Below are positions 1 to 52,803 of a DNA stretch of 64,000 nt, one piece after another (position 1 is the stretch's first letter; each line of letters opens with the position of its first letter). The stretch is taken from positions 12,881-76,880 of the forward strand of contig CAMVJD010000007.1 of NCBI GenBank assembly GCA_947167715.1, read 5' to 3'. Below the pieces are notes generated by a model, which was given only the letters and a program-made list of their open reading frames with translations, ran no database searches and was not told the DNA's origin. The DNA is from an uncultured Eubacteriaceae bacterium (GTDB taxonomy: Bacteria > Bacillota > Clostridia > Lachnospirales > CAG-274). A program made the position numbers and the translations under genes.

Positions 1-233
1 TCGGTTATGTTTATTTCGGCAGACCGCAAATGCTTTTTAAATGCCGCCGCCAGCTCCGTACCCGGGACATCCGGCAGGCCGGGGTAATTTGATATTTTTT
101 CCGCCCTTGATATTTTTGCCGAAAGCTGTGCGCTGCCAAAAAGCAAAACGCTTTTGCCGCGCTGTACGGCCGTTATTGCCGCCGAGACCCCCGCAGGCCC
201 CGTGCCGATCACCGCAATATCCGCTTTATTCAT
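1..233 (-). CDS. NAD(P)/FAD-dependent oxidoreductase, thioredoxin-reductase-like (N-terminal 77 aa only; the rest lies left of the window)
   Basis: Hand translation of the minus strand from ATG at 233-231 gives MNKADIAVIGTGPAGVSAAITAVQRGKSVLLFG..., a Rossmann GxGxxG start. The frame is open to the window edge. It is absent from the ORF track because it is truncated. Confidence 0.6.
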   Translation of the reverse strand, partial: MNKADIAVIGTGPAGVSAAITAVQRGKSVLLFGSAQLSAKISRAEKISNYPGLPDVPGTELAAAFKKHLRSAEINIT

Positions 234-403
234 CATTCTCACCCTCTTTCGGTTTAGGATTCTCATTGTTTTATTTAATTATACAGGCTTTTAATAGTAT
301 TGTCAAATATTTATGCGGTATACGGTATTAATAAGATACTCCCGCGATACGTTTTTTTCGGCAAAAACACTTCTATAATATCAAAGACAAAAAAGACTCT
401 GTG

Positions 404-432
404 TTGACGAAAAATTTAAACCGTGATATACT
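404..432 (+). promoter_or_regulatory. sigma-A type promoter for the sensor/folate operon
   Basis: TTGACG (404-409), 17-nt spacer, TATACT (427-432), about 60 nt upstream of the ATG at 493. Confidence 0.5.
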
Positions 433-492
433 ATTAATATCGGACACTTACAGATATAGTTTATGCAGATTATTTTGACCGGAGGCGGTTTA

Positions 493-3432
493 ATGAAAAA
501 TATTTTTTTGGCATTTATATTAACGGCTGCCATGATCTTAACACCTGTTTCTGCCGCCGATTCGGCTGCGGAACAACATAATGATGTTGTTAAGGAGGGG
601 GCGGCCTATACCACCGTTTTATATGACAGAAGCAGCGGTCTGCCCACATCGGAGGCAAATGCCGTTTTACAGACCTCGGACGGATTTGTATGGATAGGCA
701 GCTACAGCGGTCTGGTGCGCTATGACGGCTCGGAATTTTATCGTTTTGACTCCTCCGTGGGCATTTCAAGCGTGATCTGCCTTTACGAGGACAGCAGGCA
801 GCGGCTTTGGATAGGCACAAACGATGCCGGTCTGGCCGTTTACGAGGACAACGAATTTAAGTTTTACAGCCGTGAACAGGGTCTTCGCTCGGCATCCATC
901 CGCTCTATATGCGAGGACTCGGCGGGCAATATTTATGCCGCCACCACCTTTGGCCTTGGTTATGTTGATAAAGACGGCAATTTAAACGAAATTTCGGATG
1001 CACACCTAAACGGCGAATATATAAAGGACCTTGACAGCGACAGCGAGGGCACCGTATACGGCATAACCTCAAAGGGCAATCTTTTTGTTATAAAAGACTG
1101 CTCGGTATCTGCAATATACCCCAACACCAACCTTACCGACAGCGTTATAAACTGTGTTACGGCGGATAAGCAAGCCCCCGGCGCAGTATATCTCGGTACG
1201 GAGGACAGCGAGATCATCTATGGCAGCGTAAATAACGATATGTCAGACCCGAAAAAATATTCGACGGCACCGCTGCGCCATATAAACCGCATTTTTGAAT
1301 ACAGCGATTCGCTTTGGATATGCTCGGACAACGGCATAGGCCGCTTTAAGGATGATATGAGCTATTCAAGCCTATATAACCTGCCCATAGACGATTCTAT
1401 CGACAATATGATGTGTGATTACGAGGGGAACCTGTGGTTTGCATCATCAAGACAGGGCGTGCTTAAAATTGCGCCAAGTCAGTTTATGGATTTAAATATG
1501 GCAGCGGGCATTGAAACGGGAGTAGTAAATACCACCTGTTTAAACGGCAATAAGCTTTACATCGGCACAGACAGCGGTCTTAAGGTGACGGACACCGAAA
1601 ACAACCCCATAGACGACCCTATGTGTGCCATGCTTGACGGCGTAAGAATACGCTGCATAAAAAAGGACAAAAACGGGAATATATGGTTTTGCACCTTTGG
1701 CGAAAAGGGGCTTGTATGCCTACACCCCGACGGAAGCACAAAAACCTTTGGCGAGGCCGACGGCTTTTTGTCGCATCGTTTTCGTACTGCGGAAATGCTT
1801 GACGACGGACGTATAGCGGTATCCTGCACGGGCGGCGCCTATATCATGGACGAAAACGGCATTATAGAGTCCTACGAAAACAAGGACGGCATAGGCAATT
1901 CCGATATACTTTGCATAGCCGACGGCGGCAGCGGCACATTATACCTGGGCAGCGACGGCGACGGCATTTACAAGGTAAATGACGGCAAAATAGAGCATTT
2001 AGGCGTAGAAAACGGCCTGCGCAGCGAGGTTGTTTTAAAAATAAAAAAGGATGAAATAAACGGCCTTTACTGGATAATCACAAGTAATTCAATCGCCTAT
2101 ATGAAGGACGATAAAATAACCTGTGTAACAAATTTCCCCTATTCCAACAATTTTGATATTTACCCCGACAATAACGGGCGTATGTGGGTACTTTCAAGCA
2201 ACGGCATATATGTTGCCACCGTGCAAAGCCTTATAAACAACACCGGCAGCGAATATCAGTTTTACGACACAAAAAGCGGTCTGCCCTGTGTTGCCACGGT
2301 AAACTCATCAAGTGCGGAGGACGAAAACGGCAGGCTTTATATGGCGGGCGGAACGGGCGTTGTGCGCATAGACCTTAACACGGCGGAGGAAAGCTATAAA
2401 AACACCAAGCTTACCGTACCCTTTGTTGCGGCGGACGGCGTTATCTATACCGTAAAAAACAATACGGTCACAATACCCTCAAACACCAGACGGTTGACGG
2501 TTTATGACTATGTACTGACATTTTCGCTTAAAAACCCCAGCGTAAGCTATATGCTTGACGGCTTTGACAAGGAGCCCTACAGCCTTTTAAAGCAGGATAT
2601 GGAGCCTGTCAGCTACACAAACCTTAAGGGCGGCACCTATCACTTTAAATTAAGCGTTGTAGATACATTCACGGGCAACGCGGGCGATACGCTTAATATT
2701 ACCGTCATAAAGGAAAAAGCGCTTTACGAAAAGCTTTGGTTTATTATAACGGTCATCCTTGGCGCGCTCGTGCTGCTTGGGCTTGCGGTGCATTTTTACT
2801 TAAAAAAGAAAACCGCCAAGCTTTTAAAGACCCAAAACGAGCAAAAGCAGTATATCAACGAGATAATCCAGGCATTTGCAAAGTGTATAGATATGAAGGA
2901 TAAGTATACCCGCGGCCATTCGTTCCGTGTGGCATACTATTCAAGGCTGCTGGCCGAAAAAATGGGCTACGGCAGGGACGATGCCGAGGAGGTATACAAT
3001 ATTGCGCTTTTGCATGATATAGGCAAAATAAGCATACCCGACGAGATACTTAACAAACCCGGCCGCGCCACGGACGAGGAATATGCCATACTTAAAAGCC
3101 ATTCCCAGAACGGCTACGAGATATTAAAGGATATAACCATTGCGCCCAAGCTTGCACTCGGCGCGCGCTTCCACCACGAGCGCCCCGACGGCAGGGGCTA
3201 TCCAAAGGGGCTTACCGCGGAGGATATACCGCCTATGGCCAAAATAATCGCCGTTGCGGACACCTTTGATGCAATGTACTCAAACCGCCCCTACAGAAAG
3301 CAGCTTGAATTAAGCGTTGTTGTAGACGAGCTTAAACGTGTTGCGGGCACACAGCTCGATCCCGAGGTCGTGGATTGTATGATAAAGCTTGTGGATGAGG
3401 GCAAAATAGGCAAAAGAAATATGGAAGAATGA
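493..3432 (+). CDS. Membrane sensor: signal peptide, beta-propeller (two-component-regulator propeller repeats), Y_Y_Y domain, TM helix, cytoplasmic HD-GYP phosphodiesterase domain
   Basis: ORF 463..3432. GGAGG lies 8 nt before the ATG at 493 (MKNIFLAFILTAAMILTPVSA = signal peptide). Repeated W/G-rich propeller units are present, and GTYHFKLSV is Y_Y_Y-like. The TM segment is LWFIITVILGALVLLGLAV. The C-terminus has HSFRVA...LLHDIGK...HHERPDGRGYP, the HD-GYP signature. Confidence 0.85.
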   Translation: MKNIFLAFILTAAMILTPVSAADSAAEQHNDVVKEGAAYTTVLYDRSSGLPTSEANAVLQTSDGFVWIGSYSGLVRYDGSEFYRFDSSVGISSVICLYEDSRQRLWIGTNDAGLAVYEDNEFKFYSREQGLRSASIRSICEDSAGNIYAATTFGLGYVDKDGNLNEISDAHLNGEYIKDLDSDSEGTVYGITSKGNLFVIKDCSVSAIYPNTNLTDSVINCVTADKQAPGAVYLGTEDSEIIYGSVNNDMSDPKKYSTAPLRHINRIFEYSDSLWICSDNGIGRFKDDMSYSSLYNLPIDDSIDNMMCDYEGNLWFASSRQGVLKIAPSQFMDLNMAAGIETGVVNTTCLNGNKLYIGTDSGLKVTDTENNPIDDPMCAMLDGVRIRCIKKDKNGNIWFCTFGEKGLVCLHPDGSTKTFGEADGFLSHRFRTAEMLDDGRIAVSCTGGAYIMDENGIIESYENKDGIGNSDILCIADGGSGTLYLGSDGDGIYKVNDGKIEHLGVENGLRSEVVLKIKKDEINGLYWIITSNSIAYMKDDKITCVTNFPYSNNFDIYPDNNGRMWVLSSNGIYVATVQSLINNTGSEYQFYDTKSGLPCVATVNSSSAEDENGRLYMAGGTGVVRIDLNTAEESYKNTKLTVPFVAADGVIYTVKNNTVTIPSNTRRLTVYDYVLTFSLKNPSVSYMLDGFDKEPYSLLKQDMEPVSYTNLKGGTYHFKLSVVDTFTGNAGDTLNITVIKEKALYEKLWFIITVILGALVLLGLAVHFYLKKKTAKLLKTQNEQKQYINEIIQAFAKCIDMKDKYTRGHSFRVAYYSRLLAEKMGYGRDDAEEVYNIALLHDIGKISIPDEILNKPGRATDEEYAILKSHSQNGYEILKDITIAPKLALGARFHHERPDGRGYPKGLTAEDIPPMAKIIAVADTFDAMYSNRPYRKQLELSVVVDELKRVAGTQLDPEVVDCMIKLVDEGKIGKRNMEE

Positions 3433-4667
3433 AAATGACTTACGAACAGACCATGGAATACCTGACGGGGCTGTCCAAATTTGGCATTAAGCTGGGGCTT
3501 GACAATATGCGCGCCCTTTTGGATGCCACAGGACACCCCGAAAACGGGCAAAAAATAATACATATCGCAGGCACCAACGGCAAGGGCTCTACGGGCGCAT
3601 TTATCGCGGCGGGGCTGATGTCGGCGGGATACAGGGTGGGACGATACGTTTCGCCTACGGTTTTTTGCTATGAGGAGCGTTTTCAGGTAAACGGCAGCTT
3701 TATCCCCAAAAACGAGCTGCCCCTTTACATCACGGCCGTAAAGGATGCGGCCGAAGCGGCGGGCATTACCCCCACCGTGTTTGAGGCCGAAACGGCGGCA
3801 GCGCTTTTATTTTTTAAAAATCGGGGCTGTGACTTTACCCTGCTTGAGGTAGGTATGGGCGGCAGGCTGGATGCCACAAATGCCGCAGATAAGACCTATT
3901 GCTCGGTCATTACGCCAATAGCCCTTGACCACACCGCCATACTCGGCGATACAATAGCCAAAATAGCCTTTGAAAAGGCGGGCATAATAAAGCCAAACGG
4001 CATTGTTTTTTCGGCCGTGCAGACCGAGGAAGCGGCAGAGGTGCTAAAGCGGGCGGCAGGGGAGAAAAATGCCCGGCTCATCTTTTGCGCCGAGCCCGTA
4101 ATACACAATGACGGCAGCTTTGACTATGGGGAGTACAAAAATTTAAAAATAAGCCTTAAGGGTCAATATCAATACCAAAATGCCGCGCTTGCGGCCGAGG
4201 TGCTAAAGCATATAACAAACAGCGAAAGCGCCGTAAGGGACGGCTTTGCGGCCACAGAATGGGCGGGCAGGTTTCAGGTCATCGAGGGCGACCCCGTATT
4301 TATATTTGACGGCGCACACAACCCGCAGGGGGCAGAGGCGCTTGTCAAGGGGCTTGAAAATTACAAAAACATCACTTATATATGCGGCATTTTTGCCGAC
4401 AAGGACTATAAAAAAATGGTAAGCATTGCGGCGCCGCTTGCAAGGCGGGTCATCACCGTTACACCGCCGTCACCGCGCGGTCTGGATGCCGCAGAGCTGA
4501 AAAAGGAATTTTTAAAATATTTACCCGATGTAACGGCAATGCCGCTTGAAGCGGCGATAAAAACCGCATTTAACTATAAGGGCGGCTGTGTTGCGGTATT
4601 CGGGAGCCTTTCGTTTTTGGGCGAGGCGATAGGAATAGTAAAGGAGCAAAAAAATGGACAGAGATAA
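3429..4667 (+). CDS. folC: Folylpolyglutamate synthase / dihydrofolate synthase
   Basis: [13 protein letters not shown]-loop and Mur-ligase-like layout. The ATG overlaps the sensor stop (ATGA); a second ATG lies at 3435. Confidence 0.9.
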
Positions 4668-5205
4668 AATTATGCAGGGTGTAAGGCTGATACTGGAGGG
4701 TGTCGGCGAGGATCCGACCCGAGAGGGCTTGCTTGAAACGCCGCTGCGCGTTGCAAGAATGTACGAGGAAATATTTTCGGGTCTCGGCGAGGATGCTGCG
4801 GAGCATCTTTCGCGCACCTTTACATCGGCAAATTCCGATATTATCGTGGAAAAGGACATTACCTTCTATTCCACCTGCGAGCATCATTTAATGCCGTTTT
4901 TCGGCAAGGCGGCTATAGGCTATATCCCAAACGGCAAGGTGGTAGGCATAAGCAAGCTGGCGCGCACCGTTGAGGTATTTGCAAAGCGCCCCCAGATACA
5001 GGAGCAGCTTACCGCACAGATAGCCGATGCCATTGCCCAAAATCTGGACACAAGGGGCGTAATAGTTGCAATAGAGGCAGAGCATACCTGTATGACCATG
5101 CGCGGTGTCAAAAAGCCCGGCACCAAAACATTTACGCTTGTGTCAAGGGGTGTTTTTGAGGATGACGCGGAGTTAAGGCGCCTGTTTTTGGATATGATAA
5201 GATGA
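4654..5205 (+). CDS. folE: GTP cyclohydrolase I
   Basis: Motifs [51 protein letters not shown]. It overlaps the folC end by 14 nt. Confidence 0.95.
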
Positions 5206-5678
5206 AAAGGATAGACCTGCTTTTTGCAAACCCCGAATATCAAAATTTACTTGAATATATAAAATATGCCGAGCGTGACCGCAAATTCTGCCGTCACGAT
5301 ATTCGGCATTTTTTGGATATGTCGCGGCTTTTATACATTTACTGCCTTGAAGAGGGGCTTGATATCGACAAGGAGCTTATTTATGCCATAGGGCTTTTGC
5401 ACGATATAGGCCGCGCCGAGCAGTATAAAAGCGGCAGGGAGCATCACCTCGCAGGCGCGGAGTGCGCAAAAAAATTAATGCCCCTATGCGGCTTTACAAA
5501 CGAAGAAACACAAAGGGCGGCAGAAGCGATACTGTCGCACCGAAGCACCGAAAGCGGCGATATTTTGGCTCGGCTTGTATACAGGGCCGACAAGCGTTCG
5601 CGGCTGTGCTTTGACTGTCCCGCGCGGGACGAGTGTAACTGGCCGCGCGAAAAAATGAATTTGGAGATAGATATATGA
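5202..5678 (+). CDS. HD-domain metal-dependent phosphohydrolase (function unassigned) embedded in the folate operon
   Basis: RHDIRHF...[10 protein letters not shown]...EHHLAGA is an HD-superfamily H..HD..D pattern. There is a C-terminal Cys cluster, [14 protein letters not shown] overlaps link it to both folE and folP. Confidence 0.75.
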
Positions 5679-6475
5679 TAATAAACAATAAAACCTATGA
5701 CGAAAGAGTTTATATAATGGGCATTTTAAATGTCACGCCCGATTCGTTCTCGGACGGCGGCAAATTTAACAATATCGACACCGCCTTGTACCGTGCCGAG
5801 CAGATAGTAAACGAGGGCGGCGATATGATCGACATAGGCGGCGAATCAACGCGCCCGGGCTATACCAAAATAAGCGATCAAGAGGAAATAGAGCGCACCG
5901 CCCCCATAATAGAGGCAATATCGGGCTGCTTTGACCTGCCCGTTTCCATTGACACCTACAAAAGCGCCGTTGCCGAGGCCGCATTAAAGGCGGGTGCGGC
6001 TATGGTAAACGACATTTGGGGCTTTAAATACGATAAGGCTATGGCCAAAATAACGGCAAAATACGGCGCGGCCTGCTGTCTTATGCATAACCGCGACAAT
6101 ACCGATTATAACGACCTTATACAGGATATTAAAAACGATTTGCGGCAGTCGGTGGATATTGCCCTTGATGCGGGCGTTTCAAGGGATAAAATTTGCATCG
6201 ACCCCGGCATTGGCTTTGCAAAGACCTACGAGCAAAATTTAATGACCCTTAAGCAGTTGGAGGAATTTAATTCGCTTGGTTATCCCGTGCTTTTGGGTAC
6301 ATCAAGAAAAAGCGTTATAGGACTTACCCTTGACCTGCCCGCCGACAGCCGTCTGGAGGGTACCATAGCCACAAGCGTGCTTGGCGTAACAAAGGGCTGT
6401 AGGTTTTTAAGGGTGCATGACGTGTTGGAGAATAAACGCGCCGTTGTTATGACCGAAAGGATATTGAATAGTTGA
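5675..6475 (+). CDS. folP: Dihydropteroate synthase
   Basis: Motifs GILNVTPDSFSDGG, DIGGESTRPG, VNDIWG, DPGIGFAKT, LLGTSRKS, RVHDV. Confidence 0.95.
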   Translation: MIINNKTYDERVYIMGILNVTPDSFSDGGKFNNIDTALYRAEQIVNEGGDMIDIGGESTRPGYTKISDQEEIERTAPIIEAISGCFDLPVSIDTYKSAVAEAALKAGAAMVNDIWGFKYDKAMAKITAKYGAACCLMHNRDNTDYNDLIQDIKNDLRQSVDIALDAGVSRDKICIDPGIGFAKTYEQNLMTLKQLEEFNSLGYPVLLGTSRKSVIGLTLDLPADSRLEGTIATSVLGVTKGCRFLRVHDVLENKRAVVMTERILNS

Positions 6476-6483
6476 AAACTTCA

Positions 6484-6566
6484 GGCGGACGGACACATAG
6501 GTCCGTCCCTACAACAAATGATCAATATATCACCATTGTAGGGAACGACCTGTGTGTCGTTCCGCC
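6484..6566. repeat. Nested palindromic REP-like element
   Basis: The left arm GGCGGACGGACACATAGGTCCGTCCCTACAA (6484-6514) matches the reverse complement of 6536-6566 (GGCGGAACGACACACAGGTCGTTCCCTACAA). Each arm also contains its own 6-bp hairpin. Confidence 0.7.
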
Positions 6567-6589
6567 GCCTTGTCCGACGATAAATCAAA

Positions 6590-6626
6590 AAAGTAAAAAG
6601 CCGCGGGATTGCCGCGGCTTTTGTAG
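6590..6626. terminator. Bidirectional intrinsic terminator (folate operon on +, small ORF/secreted-protein operon on -)
   Basis: AGCCGCGG-GATT-GCCGCGGCT stem, with an A-run on the left and a T-run on the right. Confidence 0.75.
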
Positions 6627-6627
6627 T

Positions 6628-6750
6628 TTATTCAAGCTCTTCGTCTATTTCGGTCGGTGTCATAACCAATGCAGATGTCATATTCATTATATCACATTCG
6701 TTATTAAAAACCGTAACTTCTACAGCGGGAATTTCATAAATCTTTTTCAA
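6628..6750 (-). CDS. Small ORF, 40 aa, unknown function (TTG start)
   Basis: Not in the ORF track. GGAGGA lies 8 nt upstream of the TTG at 6750, and an in-frame TAG lies just upstream. Product (M)KKIYEIPAVEVTVFNNECDIMNMTSALVMTPTEIDEELE. It starts 34 nt after the 547-aa gene and is followed by the terminator. Confidence 0.35.
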   Translation of the reverse strand: MKKIYEIPAVEVTVFNNECDIMNMTSALVMTPTEIDEELE

Positions 6751-6784
6751 AATCGTTTCCTCCTATCTTAAGTCTTTGACAGTA

Positions 6785-8428
6785 TTAAGCAAAAAGATTT
6801 GTTGTTATTTTATTTATATTTGTTTCGGCATCACTGCCCGGATGGTTGATCTTTGTAGCAAAAAGAAGATCATCGGCATTACCGCCAAACTCTGTTGCAT
6901 CATACGGTGTACCGCCGATATTTACTTTTTGGTAAACAGTATCGGAACTTACAAGCTTCTTGCCGTATACCTGCTCTAATCTGCTTGATGCCGCAGCCTG
7001 TGCTGCCGTAACCACCGATACAGCATAATGGTTTGCGCCGTCTGTATAATATTTAACAGCTTCGGAAGATGTCGGGGCTGCTGTAGTTGAAAGAGCAATG
7101 CTATATACATAATAATCATCATTCGGTGCAATAAGCTCTACATAACCTTTTGTAACATCAGCAGCAACAGCCTTGTATGATACATCACCCTTTGCAGTAG
7201 TTGTACCACCTATTGTTGCATTTGCATTTTCAGAATTTACAGTAACAGTATCGCCTACAGCATAAACGGGAATATATGCTGTAGCACCATCACGCATTTG
7301 AATATATCCATTTCCGTTATTGGCATATACAAATTTACCACCGCTCTTTGCATTTACAAATAACGAAATATTTGCAACATTTGAGTTTACAATGCCGTTT
7401 TTATTTTGATATGCTGTATTGTCTGCATTGTAACTTGTGCTTGTTTTGAAATCCCAAGTGTAATTGGTTACTACAGGGAATGCTGTGGATTTAACAGTGA
7501 TAGACTTGATATATCCACCTGATGCAGTACTAACCAATTCTACATCTCCTGCTGATGTAGTTGTGTATGGTGTTGTGTATTCTGTACCATTTATGGTTGC
7601 AGTTGTTCCACTTTTAAGAAGCACTGTTATAACAGCTCCGGATGGTACGTTGGGAATAGTGATTTTTGCACCATTTGTAAATTGTGCCCAAGTTTCTTTA
7701 TTGTAGCCAATTTTTCCACTCGTTGCATCAGCAATAAGTTCCGGAGCATTGGAAGCAGCAACCTTTGTCGTTGCCGCAATTGTTCCCGATGTATTTTGAT
7801 ATACTTTATTATCTTCAGCAATTAATTTTGCCGCAATATCATAAGTGGTTGTATATCTTGTCCCGGTAATATTTGAATTAGTAACAGAAAAATTCCTAAT
7901 TAATGGGTTTTTATTTCCTGCTGCAAAAAGATAATAATATCCGGCTTCATCTATCGCATCAAATACCGCAGTAACTTCTGTTAAAGATGTATAATCTGTG
8001 CTGCTTCCAATATGTACGGAATTGTATGTTGCTGTACTACTATATGTTGTTTCCGAATTGCCTCCCACGAGATACAATGTACAATCATTATTCTTTGATG
8101 AAAAAACAGCTTTTACTGTAACAACATCTCCCGCATCCGCAACAAAGCCAATATATCTGCCCGCCGCTTCAACAGCACTACCATTACTGATTTTATTGAG
8201 TTTTACTGCCGAATTACCATTTCCCGAATGTGACACTTTAAATACATCACCAACTTCATTTGTAACAGTATACGTTCCCGTAGTACCATTTGTTGCTCCT
8301 TCTCCATTCCAAGGCAAAGTTGTAAAATCAATGGTTGCTTCTGTTGCCCAAGCCGCAACACTACTCAACGCCATAGTTACGCCGACTACTGCTGTTGCCG
8401 CAATAGTCTTTAATAAAGATCTTCTCAT
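6785..8428 (-). CDS. Secreted protein of unknown function with about three repeated beta-rich modules
   Basis: AGGAGGA RBS. The signal peptide is MRRSLLKTIAATAVVGVTMALSSVAAWA. Module endings recur: YYYLFAAGNKNPLIRNFSVTN, GGYIKSITVKS, DDYYVYSIALS. No catalytic motif was recognised. Confidence 0.7.
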   Translation of the reverse strand: MRRSLLKTIAATAVVGVTMALSSVAAWATEATIDFTTLPWNGEGATNGTTGTYTVTNEVGDVFKVSHSGNGNSAVKLNKISNGSAVEAAGRYIGFVADAGDVVTVKAVFSSKNNDCTLYLVGGNSETTYSSTATYNSVHIGSSTDYTSLTEVTAVFDAIDEAGYYYLFAAGNKNPLIRNFSVTNSNITGTRYTTTYDIAAKLIAEDNKVYQNTSGTIAATTKVAASNAPELIADATSGKIGYNKETWAQFTNGAKITIPNVPSGAVITVLLKSGTTATINGTEYTTPYTTTSAGDVELVSTASGGYIKSITVKSTAFPVVTNYTWDFKTSTSYNADNTAYQNKNGIVNSNVANISLFVNAKSGGKFVYANNGNGYIQMRDGATAYIPVYAVGDTVTVNSENANATIGGTTTAKGDVSYKAVAADVTKGYVELIAPNDDYYVYSIALSTTAAPTSSEAVKYYTDGANHYAVSVVTAAQAAASSRLEQVYGKKLVSSDTVYQKVNIGGTPYDATEFGGNADDLLFATKINHPGSDAETNINKITTNLFA

Positions 8429-50339: not shown

Positions 50340-50442
50340 AATAATTCACCTCTGTAATTCGTTTCTTTAATTATATACCATATATCAAAAAAAGCAAAGT
50401 ATTTTTTTAGGATATTTTTTGTCAAATTGCTCTAAAAGCAAA

Positions 50443-50729
50443 ACCCGGGTACAAGACCCGGGTCAGACTGTCAAAAAAGTTATTTTATACTATACGTTAT
50501 GAATTATTTAAAGCTATTTCATTTTATTAAGTAACTTTGGCGTCGCAGACTTCTAATCCGCAGGCGGAAACCGCGTTTTCGCCGAGGAGCAAAACTTGTT
50601 TTTGCTACAGATATTCGGGCAAGTGTATCTTTGATGCGCGCAGCCCGAATGTGATTTGACGGAAAATGTCAATTTTCCGTCAAGGCTGTCGACTTTATCG
50701 ACAGCCAGACCCGGGTACAAGACCCGGGT
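50443..50729. repeat. Hairpin array bounded by a 21-bp direct repeat (ACCCGGGTACAAGACCCGGGT)
   Basis: The repeat lies at 50443-50463 and 50709-50729. Between the copies are perfect hairpins with 7- to 12-bp stems, each with a different sequence. Confidence 0.7.
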
Positions 50730-50736
50730 GTGGTTA

Positions 50737-51564
50737 TTAACCGATTATTGTTACAACAAAGTTGTAGTTTGTGCCGCCGATCGTGCTTTCGGCTCTGAGA
50801 AGGCTTACGCCCTTGCCCTCGCCGGCAACGATGAACTTGTCATCCTGTACGCCTACGGCATTGTCCTTAAGGCCTTCAACGCTGTATACATAGTTTGTAA
50901 GGTCGTCGCCAAGGTACTTTGAAAGGTTTGTAAGAGAATTTCTCTTTACCTTGATCTCTTTGGTAACATAGTTGTCCGCAACGGTTACATAAAAATCGTA
51001 AACGGTAGTAAATCTTGTTGCTGTGATGTGTACGATACCGGGCTTGAGAGCGGTTATCTTACCCTGCTTGATAGCAACGATATTCTTGTCGGAGAATCTC
51101 CAGTTGTATTTGTCGTATTTAAGACCCGGTTCAAGCATATTTGTAAGAGGGAATTTATCCTTAACGCCCATTGTAAGGTATCTTTCGGTATGTGCGATAG
51201 TTTCGCCGCGTGAATTTCTGCCGTCGTTTACCTTTGACGACTGGGAAACGATATCCTGATAGCCCGAGAAGTTCTTTAATACCTTAATTTTAAAGGAATA
51301 TTCAACGCCATTTGACGAGCCGGAGATAAGAGCCGTTCCCGTTTTTGATGCGGTTACGTTGTTACCGCTTATTTTTACCACGCCGGGCGCACTATTTGAC
51401 CAACTTATACCCGAAGCCCCCGCCTTAAGGTAAGTGTCAAGGCTTTTGGTTTCTCCCGCGCCCATTGTTATGTTCATTGATACGTTGGTATCGGCCATAA
51501 CAAACGCTGCACTGCTTAAAACCATAACCAGTGTCATAAATGCTGCAATAATTTTTTTGTACAT
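50737..51564 (-). CDS. Secreted protein with bacterial Ig-like (Big_2-type) domains
   Basis: Signal peptide present. VVKISGNNVTASKTGTALISG and IVAIKQGKITALKPGIVHITA are Big_2-like strands. Confidence 0.65.
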   Translation of the reverse strand: MYKKIIAAFMTLVMVLSSAAFVMADTNVSMNITMGAGETKSLDTYLKAGASGISWSNSAPGVVKISGNNVTASKTGTALISGSSNGVEYSFKIKVLKNFSGYQDIVSQSSKVNDGRNSRGETIAHTERYLTMGVKDKFPLTNMLEPGLKYDKYNWRFSDKNIVAIKQGKITALKPGIVHITATRFTTVYDFYVTVADNYVTKEIKVKRNSLTNLSKYLGDDLTNYVYSVEGLKDNAVGVQDDKFIVAGEGKGVSLLRAESTIGGTNYNFVVTIIG

Positions 51565-51596: not shown

Positions 51597-51613
51597 GGTC
51601 AACTTTGTTGACC
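51597..51613. promoter_or_regulatory. Perfect 7-3-7 palindrome GGTCAAC-TTT-GTTGACC upstream of the Big_2 protein gene
   Basis: Seen directly in the sequence. It lies 33-49 nt upstream of the ATG at 51564. Confidence 0.35.
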
Positions 51614-51862
51614 AATATATCGCCATATATAAGGTATTGTATCATATTTTTCCGCATTTGTCCAGCATTTGGGGTAGATTAAAATTTTTTCGTTATTTGT
51701 GACAAATTAAACTATTAAAATTGTATTAAATTAACAATCACACTTTTACCAATATGTCAAGCAAAAAATTTTATTTTGCCACTTAAAATTAAACAAAATT
51801 ACAAAACACGCTTTTTAAGGGCGGTTTTGCAGCATTATTTTTCTATATAAAATATGCGAATT

Positions 51863-51994
51863 TGTGGATAACTTACCCTTTAAAATGTGGATAAAGTGGA
51901 TAACTGTGTGAATAACCGTTTTAAGCCCCTTTCAACGTGTGGAAATGTTGATGGTTTTTGTGGATAAACCCTTATTTGCACCAAGTTATCCACA
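51863..51994. promoter_or_regulatory. DnaA-box cluster
   Basis: Perfect TGTGGATAA at 51863, 51886 and 51959, and a perfect TTATCCACA at 51986. One-mismatch boxes lie at 51895 (AGTGGATAA) and 51907 (TGTGAATAA). A weaker box, TGTGGAAAT, lies at 51938. Confidence 0.75.
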
Positions 51995-52075
51995 AACGAT
52001 ATTTATTTCGGTTTTTATCGAAAATAAATTTTGTTGTTTTTTGACAAAATTAAAAAATCCGTCAAATATTGCTTG

Positions 52076-52108
52076 ACAAAAAAGCGACATTTCATAACGA
52101 AATGCCGC
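52076..52108 (-). terminator. Intrinsic terminator after rpmJ
   Basis: The minus strand reads GCGGCATTTC-GTTAT-GAAATGTCGC followed by TTTTTTG. Confidence 0.75.
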
Positions 52109-52157
52109 AAGTAAATTTCTAATATTAAAAATTTAAGTATATTGTGCTATATGAAAA

Positions 52158-52271
52158 TCAGCCCTGCTTTTGCTTATGCTTGGGATTTTCACAGATTATT
52201 CTTACAGAGCCTTTTCTTCTGATAACTCTGCACTTTTCGCACATTGGTTTTACAGATGGTCTAACCTTCAT
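52158..52271 (-). CDS. rpmJ: 50S ribosomal protein L36
   Basis: Not in the ORF track (37 aa). Hand translation gives [37 protein letters not shown]. Confidence 0.95.
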
Positions 52272-52284
52272 TTTTATTCTCCTT

Positions 52285-52503
52285 TCACTTATCTCTCCAG
52301 GTAATCCTGCCCTTTGACAGATCGTAGGGAGACATCTCTACGCGCACCTTGTCGCCGGGAATTATTTTAATAAAGTTCATACGCAGCTTACCCGAAATAT
52401 GAGCAAGAATTTTATGTCCGTTTTCCAGTTCAACTTGAAACATGGCGTTGGGAAGCTTTTCAAGGACAGTTCCCTCAACCTCTATAACATCATTTTTTGC
52501 CAA
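52285..52503 (-). CDS. infA: Translation initiation factor IF-1
   Basis: [26 protein letters not shown]...AHISGK.R...I.I.PGD.V. Apparent TTG start after AAGGAGGA. Confidence 0.95.
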
Positions 52504-52515
52504 GGTATATCCTCC

Positions 52516-52803
52516 TTAATTTTTGTCGCCAAAATAAGTTTTTAACGCCTTTCTTATATCCGAATCCATCAGATATTCACTGTCATTAAGCTTACGGTTT
52601 ATTTCTGTATCTACATACTTTGTGATCTGAACGTGTATTTTCTTTTTTTTCTTTGGTTTTTCAAGCCTGCGAAGCTTGCCGTCAACGAGGTATACATGAT
52701 CCGCATCGACATCGACAACAATAAAAGCCATGCCCTTATCTCTGCCGCTTTTTGAAAACACTACCTGACCCTTTGTGTACAATACATTCACCCCTTCACT
52801 CAA
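52516..52803 (-). CDS. KOW-domain RNA-binding protein (conserved between map and infA in Clostridia)
   Basis: GQVVFSKSGRDKGMAFIVV is a KOW-like motif. The start codon is uncertain (the ORF track uses TTG). Confidence 0.7.
   Translation of the reverse strand: MSEGVNVLYTKGQVVFSKSGRDKGMAFIVVDVDADHVYLVDGKLRRLEKPKKKKKIHVQITKYVDTEINRKLNDSEYLMDSDIRKALKTYFGDKN

Follow-up and report, generated by a model that had tools for sequence, protein, structure and literature searches.

A dense cluster of predicted DnaA boxes adjoins an AT-rich tract in the 64-kb stretch of clostridial DNA that we analyzed (referred to below as the window), at a point where the ribosomal protein gene cluster is interrupted. 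In this combination of boxes and AT-rich DNA the first-pass annotation recognized the layout of an oriC module, and it also considered a DnaA-titrating or regulatory box cluster and a DnaA-controlled promoter region. The question that the locus raises is whether replication starts here, or whether the boxes belong to the control of DnaA itself or of a neighboring gene.

Gene neighborhood and the box array

The boxes occupy an intergenic region with minus-strand genes on either side. On the right flank these are secY, adk, map, a gene for a conserved 95-aa protein, infA and rpmJ, which together form the end of an S10-spc type operon, rpmJ being the last gene of the spc-type operon on this side. 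The left flank comprises a gene for a 275-aa protein, murC, and the genes for a cytidine/dCMP-type deaminase and a fumarase beta subunit, as well as those for an 846-aa protein with a Cu_amine_oxidN1 domain, purM, purN and purD. The genes that lie closest to the boxes are the following:

infA: 52285-52503, minus strand; open reading frame next to rpmJ.
rpmJ (L36): 52158-52271, minus strand; open reading frame, and in relatives with the same arrangement the corresponding product has PF00444 (Ribosomal_L36).
Gene for the 275-aa secreted protein: 50737-51564, minus strand; predicted signal peptide and three predicted Ig-like beta-sandwich domains.

The site had been described as lying between rpmJ-infA and a Big_2 surface-protein gene, away from rpmH-dnaA-dnaN and at an interruption of the S10-spc-alpha cluster. 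Most of this description stands: the neighbors are rpmJ and the 275-aa secreted-protein gene instead of rpmH-dnaA-dnaN, and the cluster is indeed broken here, as neither rpsM nor rpsK nor rpoA is present in the 64-kb window and the array occurs only in lineages with this break. The Big_2 label, however, finds no confirmation in Pfam, as the 275-aa protein matched no Pfam family at E<=5, including Big_2 (PF02368), though its predicted fold consists of three Ig-like domains. The AlphaFold model of the protein (pLDDT 78) contains a signal peptide and three beta-sandwich domains, and its Foldseek neighbors are multi-Ig proteins, including the LigA Big domains and the EA1 S-layer protein. The protein is accordingly modelled as a predicted secreted protein with three Ig-like domains. 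Its family forms 10 clusters among 5.8 billion proteins and is confined to this clade; an exact look-up of the protein sequence returned no record, and a metagenome scan with the protein alignment returned two short loci only.

Two further observations concern this neighborhood. The 95-aa protein between map and infA (52516-52803) is lysine-rich, has no Pfam family, and is kept at this position across many Clostridia and Lachnospiraceae. In addition, a 21-nt GC-rich hairpin, ACCCGGGTACAAGACCCGGGT, occurs twice (50442-50464 and 50709-50729), once at either end of the spacer that separates the 275-aa gene from murC, with one copy scored as a terminator on each strand. The two copies might terminate transcription in both directions as a pair, or they might represent a small repeated element.

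The array itself consists of the boxes listed below, for which distances are given start to start and read in the direction of the genes (designations such as L041 refer to the related lineages described in the next section):

Box 0: 51986-51994, plus strand; perfect TTATCCACA, inverted, in the window and L041 lineages alone.
Box 1: 51959-51967, minus strand; TTATCCACA, perfect in 5/6 lineages and TTATCCACG in L029.
Box 2: 51938-51946, minus strand; ATTTCCACA, a weaker box with 2 mismatches, 21 bp past box 1.
Box 3: 51907-51915, minus strand; TTATTCACA, one mismatch to TTATCCACA, 52 bp past box 1 in 6/6 lineages.
Box 4: 51895-51903, minus strand; TTATCCACT, one mismatch, 12 bp past box 3 in 6/6 lineages.
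Box 5: 51886-51894, minus strand; TTATCCACA, directly adjoining box 4, with starts 9 bp apart, in 6/6 lineages.
Box 6a: 51863-51871, minus strand; TTATCCACA, 23 bp past box 5, present in the window, L041 and L040.

String matching in the window located the perfect 9-mer TTATCCACA four times inside 132 bp, precisely at the positions that the annotation had given (51863, 51886, 51959 and, on the opposite strand, 51986). The one-mismatch boxes reported at 51895 and 51907 were recovered as TTATCCACT and TTATTCACA, and the weaker box reported at 51938 as ATTTCCACA, the counterpart of which is ATATCCACA in the relatives L001, L003 and L029. Since TTATTCACA fully fits TTATNCACA, the B. subtilis DnaA-box consensus (PMC4447404), the array contains five consensus sites plus two weaker boxes, all within 132 bp. 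To judge whether four perfect copies in so short a segment might be unremarkable, we used 100 dinucleotide-preserving shuffles of the 64-kb window as the chance model. The shuffles contained on average 0.47 perfect boxes per 64 kb, with a maximum of 3, as compared to six in the actual window, four of which are in the cluster. This excludes a chance origin of the perfect-box cluster, and the boxes are thus real and non-random. The AT-rich tract to the left of the boxes is equally real, with a GC content of 19-26% in the segment 51650-51850 versus about 45% for the window, and none of its open reading frames is conserved among the lineages compared. When one mismatch to TTATCCACA is allowed, the whole window contains 39 sites, against 14.3 expected (shuffle maximum 25); 33 of these 39 are outside the cluster and mostly intragenic, and this excess may reflect oligonucleotide or codon bias and not function.

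Conservation and geometry of the module

Relatives were found via homologues of the 95-aa protein, exact infA products and homologues of the 275-aa protein. The array is located at the same place in six independent lineages, namely the window, L041, the L001 group (MAG RGIG4310 from roe deer gut), L003 (MAG RGIG7065 from sheep rumen), L029/L043/L044, and L040, whose 275-aa homologue has an identity of only 52%. Besides the window, these are rumen and gut MAGs and metagenome contigs. The conservation of the cluster in related genomes, which the annotation had proposed to check, is therefore evident at this position, and the gene order rpmJ, boxes, 275-aa gene, murC was found in every locus for which upstream DNA is present. 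At the 45 core positions of boxes 1 to 5 the identity between lineages is 91-98%, as opposed to 50-70% at the four-fold degenerate sites of the 275-aa gene and 33-70% (mostly about 45%) in the spacers between boxes. These differences show that strong purifying selection acts on the box sequences. The position of box 6 has turned over: the window and L041 have it 23 bp from box 5, L001, L003 and L029 have it 53 bp from box 5, and L040 has it in both places. This suggests an ancestor with both copies, of which at least one has been retained since.

Most relatives have the normal order rpmJ-rpsM-rpsK-rpsD-rpoA-rplQ. In relatives with a normal rpmJ-rpsM junction there are zero boxes after rpmJ, even where the infA product is identical, and the array was found only in lineages with a broken ribosomal protein cluster and only beside the 275-aa gene. 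The array therefore travels with the 275-aa gene module and not with rpmJ. As a side observation, organisms with identical infA products (L031, L033, L035, L038 and L039, compared with 52084-52157 of the window) show at least four different arrangements after rpmJ: the module of boxes and 275-aa gene, the normal rpsM operon past a box-free spacer of 550-630 bp, an ORF6N-domain gene, and a minus-strand gene for a 322-aa protein. At the rpmJ/rpsM junction, breakage or insertion seems to have recurred.

Alignment of the lineages delimits a module of about 470 bp (52080 to 51636) with, in the direction of the genes, arm L, block A, the boxes, arm R, a palindromic operator and the promoter P1. Together with the terminator that precedes it, its elements other than boxes are:

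rpmJ intrinsic terminator: 52084-52108, minus strand; 11-bp stem followed by TTTTTTG, from a terminator scan.
Arm L, distal part: 52069-52080, minus strand; TTTGTCAAGCAA, repeating arm R (TTGCTTGACA) in inverted orientation and delimiting the conserved module on the left.
Block A: 52017-52051, minus strand; AATTTTGTCAAAAAACAACAAAATTTATTTTCGAT, 35 nt, a putative factor-binding block.
GCTTAA motif: 51919-51927, minus strand; in the 22-bp gap from box 2 to box 3, invariant in six lineages.
Weak hairpin: 51803-51828, minus strand; enclosing an invariant AAGCG flanked by runs of A and of T, and folding in 4/6 lineages.
Arm R: 51755-51777, minus strand; AAAATAAAATTTTTTGCTTGACA, with a conserved TTGACA and an A/T-rich upstream part, 131-135 bp past box 5.
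Operator-like palindrome: 51702-51724, minus strand; ACAATTT-N9-AA(A/T)TTGT, conserved in all lineages, between arm R and P1.
Promoter P1 of the 275-aa gene: 51636-51664, minus strand; TGGACA, 17 nt and an extended -10 TGnTACAAT, conserved in all lineages.

The sequence of the rpmJ terminator varies among relatives, with the hairpin kept at the same place. The boxes are bracketed by two outward-facing copies of TTGCTTGACA, which form inverted repeats (the distal part of arm L, and arm R); in L001 this pair (I2) measures 18 nt, is 94% complementary and is 301 nt apart. Block A is near-invariant in the four lineages that cover it (the window, L001, L003 and L029), L041 being outside this full 35-nt comparison and the contig of L040 beginning inside the block. 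The GCTTAA motif is possibly an accessory-factor site. Block A and the arms are better conserved than some of the boxes, and DnaA may be one player among several at this locus. The AT-rich tract holds arm R, the palindromic operator and the extended -10 promoter, which marks it as a probable conserved promoter/operator region instead of a generic meltable spacer. The palindrome is a perfect 11-bp palindrome in L003, and it resembles the operator of a putative dimeric repressor.

Several other identities for these elements were considered and rejected. Arm R and block A do contain TTGACA, but as sigma-A promoters they lack a conserved -10: none follows the TTGACA of arm R across the lineages, and the AATATT at 18-nt spacing is found in the window and L041 only. 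An intrinsic terminator after the boxes does not qualify as a defining part of the module, since the hairpin folds in just 4/6 lineages. The conserved TTTGTCAA(A/G) motifs would at best be degenerate Spo0A boxes. All three read TGTCAAA or TGTCAAG and thus have A at position 5, whereas the 0A-box core is TGTCGAA with contacted G2, C4 and G5; the G5A change reduces Spo0A affinity approximately 10-fold (PMC3485338). A search for the extended 0A-box string yielded nothing relevant in the literature. Finally, a known RNA family is not indicated for the region, as an Rfam search of the locus gave sub-threshold chance matches only. It should also be mentioned that three contigs from different assemblies (L043 1-35, L044 1-35 and L040 1-16) begin in block A (52017-52051 of the window), possibly due to strain heterogeneity upstream of the conserved segment or to a repeat elsewhere in those genomes. 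In the 5' UTR of the 275-aa gene (51597-51613) the window has an extra hairpin, GGTCAACAAAGTTGACC, in a spot where L028 and L041 have different inserts and L001, L003 and L029 have none.

The spacing of the boxes to each other and to the blocks on the promoter side is fixed, as is apparent from the following distances (start to start):

Block A to box 1: 64 bp, 6/6 lineages (measured from the AAATTTATTTTCGA part of block A).
Box 1 to box 3: 52 bp, 6/6 lineages.
Box 3 to box 4: 12 bp, 6/6 lineages.
Box 4 to box 5: 9 bp, 6/6 lineages.
Box 5 to arm R (TTGACA): 131-135 bp, all lineages.
Block A to P1: 405-406 bp, 5/6 lineages.
rpmJ stop to block A: 126-228 bp, variable.

The variable length between rpmJ and block A means that indels are tolerated just outside the module. 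With box positions at 0, 21, 52, 73, 96 and 126 bp, the boxes are spaced by near multiples of 10.5 bp, and from this phasing most of them are expected to lie on one face of the helix. The nearest box is located about 200 bp upstream of the -35 of P1 and about 95 bp upstream of the TTGACA in arm R. Since no box overlaps P1, action at a distance, as at sda of B. subtilis, is likelier than occlusion. Judged by this layout, simple occlusion of the promoter can be considered excluded, and any regulation would work from afar.

Origin signatures at the locus

An origin at this site could be oriC in a displaced position, a second origin, or what remains of the rpmH-dnaA box cluster and is still able to fire or unwind. 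In favor of such a reading, the dense boxes adjoin a tract of very low GC content, boxes 3 and 4 stand in tandem, 3 bp apart, which is also the arrangement found in the basal unwinding system (PMC8287927), and the site coincides with a chromosomal rearrangement breakpoint. The signature of an origin is nonetheless absent. The GC skew of the plus strand is negative in each 2-kb bin from 8 to 64 kb, and the cumulative skew falls monotonically through 51.9 kb, so that the skew test suggested in the annotation reveals, within the window, no switch at the locus. Nearly all genes on either side of the array are on the minus strand. As both skew and gene strand are unchanged across the site, the replication fork crosses it from right to left, co-directionally with the ribosomal protein operon, and an origin at the array would put S10-spc head-on to the fork. 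Going by leading-strand polarity, the origin is located to the right of the window, and the array would be close to oriC, judging from the usual position of the S10-spc operon.

Furthermore, no DnaA signature motif was found in any frame of the 64-kb window, from which dnaA and dnaN are absent. To search for DnaA-trios we required a box, a spacer of <=16 bp and then at least 3 NAN triplets (PMC8287927). In any orientation, no trio runs of >=3 were found within 16 bp of any lineage-conserved box, and no trio runs of >=4 were common to the lineages; the sole run consists of 3 triplets beside the lineage-specific inverted box at 51986. The AT-rich tract, which had been interpreted as the easily melted part of an oriC, contains conserved promoter and operator blocks instead (arm R, the palindromic operator and the extended -10 promoter). 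A silent relic is unlikely, as a box identity of 91-98% is not expected of relics. The oriC-module layout and the displaced or second origin half were consequently rejected; an active origin at the array is largely refuted, and we regard any reading of the site as an origin or half of one as highly improbable.

One part of the window departs from the general gene orientation. At its start (1-6800), plus-strand genes at 463-6475 (an HD-domain regulator, a Mur-ligase-like/folC-type gene, folE and folP) converge on the minus-strand genes at about 6.6 kb, and the GC skew there is +0.02 to +0.10. On 6 kb of sequence, a head-on operon is more likely than a terminus.

DnaA control, promoter coupling and known systems

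Taking these data together, we consider the locus to be, most probably, a chromosomal non-origin DnaA-box cluster of the B. subtilis kind that is geometrically coupled to a downstream promoter region. The 5-7 predicted DnaA boxes, nearly all in one orientation and mostly on one face of the helix, would load a cooperative DnaA oligomer. DnaA bound upstream in this manner would most likely modulate transcription from the P1 region, by analogy with the arrangement at B. subtilis sda, and P1 would drive the gene for the secreted protein with three Ig-like domains. If the locus is early replicated, the array would hold several DnaA molecules and may help to buffer free DnaA, as the clusters of B. 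subtilis do. DnaA binding, the sign of the transcriptional effect, the effect on initiation timing and the proximity to oriC are what we infer from the sequence. With the origin reading discarded, the two other proposals of the annotation, a titrating or regulatory cluster and a DnaA-controlled promoter, remain as predictions in line with the intergenic array, the selection on the boxes and the fixed promoter geometry.

The fixed spacing could also serve a complex that modulates DnaA and is unrelated to the neighboring gene. The array and its accessory sites (block A, GCTTAA, arms L and R) would then be a pure DnaA-control element following the logic of datA or DARS, a nucleoprotein complex that titrates, inactivates or reactivates DnaA, with the neighboring gene being incidental. 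The exact spacing, kept although the spacers have diverged to near-random identity, would suit such an element, as would the non-box motifs at fixed positions and the inverted-repeat pair around the boxes. Control of initiation is limited to some of the B. subtilis clusters and has been proposed to depend on a specific DnaA-cluster architecture (PMC3245932). On the other hand, the fixed geometry does not end at the boxes but reaches P1 via arm R (405-406 bp), which speaks for a coupling of DnaA binding to the promoter region and against a free-standing titration site. Moreover, the array occurs only together with the 275-aa gene. Firmicutes, to our knowledge, have neither IHF nor Hda, which means that the mechanisms of E. 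coli are not directly transferable. We therefore judge a role in DnaA control alone to be unlikely, although a promoter-linked role and a role resembling datA or DARS are compatible and not mutually exclusive. A more specific proposal, which we put forward as speculative and rather doubtful, is that the module is a fixed DnaA-control element of Clostridia and a counterpart of datA and DARS, in which a factor on block A and the TTGCTTGACA arms and a phased DnaA oligomer would form a looped complex that sets the level of active DnaA and reports replication status to a cell-surface gene.

The 9-mers might, alternatively, have nothing to do with DnaA: they could be repeats that some other factor recognizes in DNA or RNA, or they could be what is left of a small mobile element with the inverted arms as its ends. 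The arms on either side of the array, the three contigs from different assemblies that begin inside block A, as can occur at repeats, and the weak terminator-like hairpin after the boxes in some lineages would be in keeping with this. However, the repeated unit is the exact DnaA-box consensus, and each of the tolerated variants, TTATTCACA, ATATCCACA and TTATCCACT, is a classic variation on the DnaA box (PMC4447404). In two lineages one of the boxes is inverted, in keeping with recognition as DNA, and the hairpin is missing in 2/6 lineages. Neither block A nor the arms recur in the window or in any locus read, there was no plasmid or phage match and no Rfam family, and a mobile element or repeat was rejected on these grounds. 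We thus attach very little probability to repeats of another nature.

The promoter-coupled cluster documented here in uncultured rumen and gut Clostridia has an unusually clean comparative signal, with boxes and spacing frozen and the intervening DNA randomized. This conservation amounts to a map of the boxes and non-box motifs (block A, GCTTAA and the inverted arms) that are worth mutating, and it suggests that the geometry of DnaA oligomers matters outside origins too. It also calls for caution in the prediction of origins in MAGs, since dense boxes next to AT-rich DNA can be a promoter-linked array far from dnaA.

Experiments on non-origin DnaA-box clusters have been performed mainly in B. 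subtilis, E. coli and Streptomyces. In B. subtilis there are six stable DnaA-box clusters outside oriC, and the deletion of all six leads to over-initiation. Boxes upstream of sda activate this gene, and other clusters repress ywlC, yydA and vpr; Firmicutes are said to commonly have non-origin clusters in the vicinity of oriC (PMC3245932, PMC4447404). The present array resembles these clusters: it belongs to a Firmicute, is intergenic and outside oriC, comprises several boxes that fit the consensus or deviate from it at one position, and possibly has a DnaA-regulated neighbor. Like the ywcI-vpr cluster it precedes a gene for a secreted protein, and like the boxes of sda its boxes lie upstream of a promoter (PMC3245932, PMC4447404). 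It differs in its genes and in its lineage of uncultured rumen and gut Clostridia. Moreover, the B. subtilis clusters follow no reported structural rule, whereas the array has inverted arms, non-box motifs and a spacing fixed to the base pair over deep divergence.

Compared to the basal unwinding system of Firmicute oriC (boxes #6/#7, DnaA-trios and an AT-rich DUE), the array shares a tandem pair of boxes in the same orientation with a 3-bp gap and nearby AT-rich DNA, but it has no conserved trios within 16 bp, no switch in skew or orientation and no dnaA or dnaN, and its AT-rich DNA is a probable promoter/operator region. Another parallel is oriCII of Pseudomonas aeruginosa, an origin-like DnaA-box cluster upstream of gidA that reportedly serves as a region of DnaA-dependent transcriptional control and not as the active origin (PMC13438810); oriCII is located among other genes, in a classical origin neighborhood (gidA), and not at a broken ribosomal protein junction. 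E. coli datA, DARS1 and DARS2 control the pool of active DnaA and are likewise non-origin box clusters, which require a defined number, orientation and spacing of boxes as well as sites for accessory proteins (PMC3245932, PMC4585315). They have no sequence relationship with the present array, which is physically coupled to a promoter region, and their mechanisms involve IHF, Fis, and steps of ATP hydrolysis or exchange that are not known from Firmicutes. Set beside these systems, the array is not a new kind of system, yet its unusually rigid architecture provides a good experimental handle.
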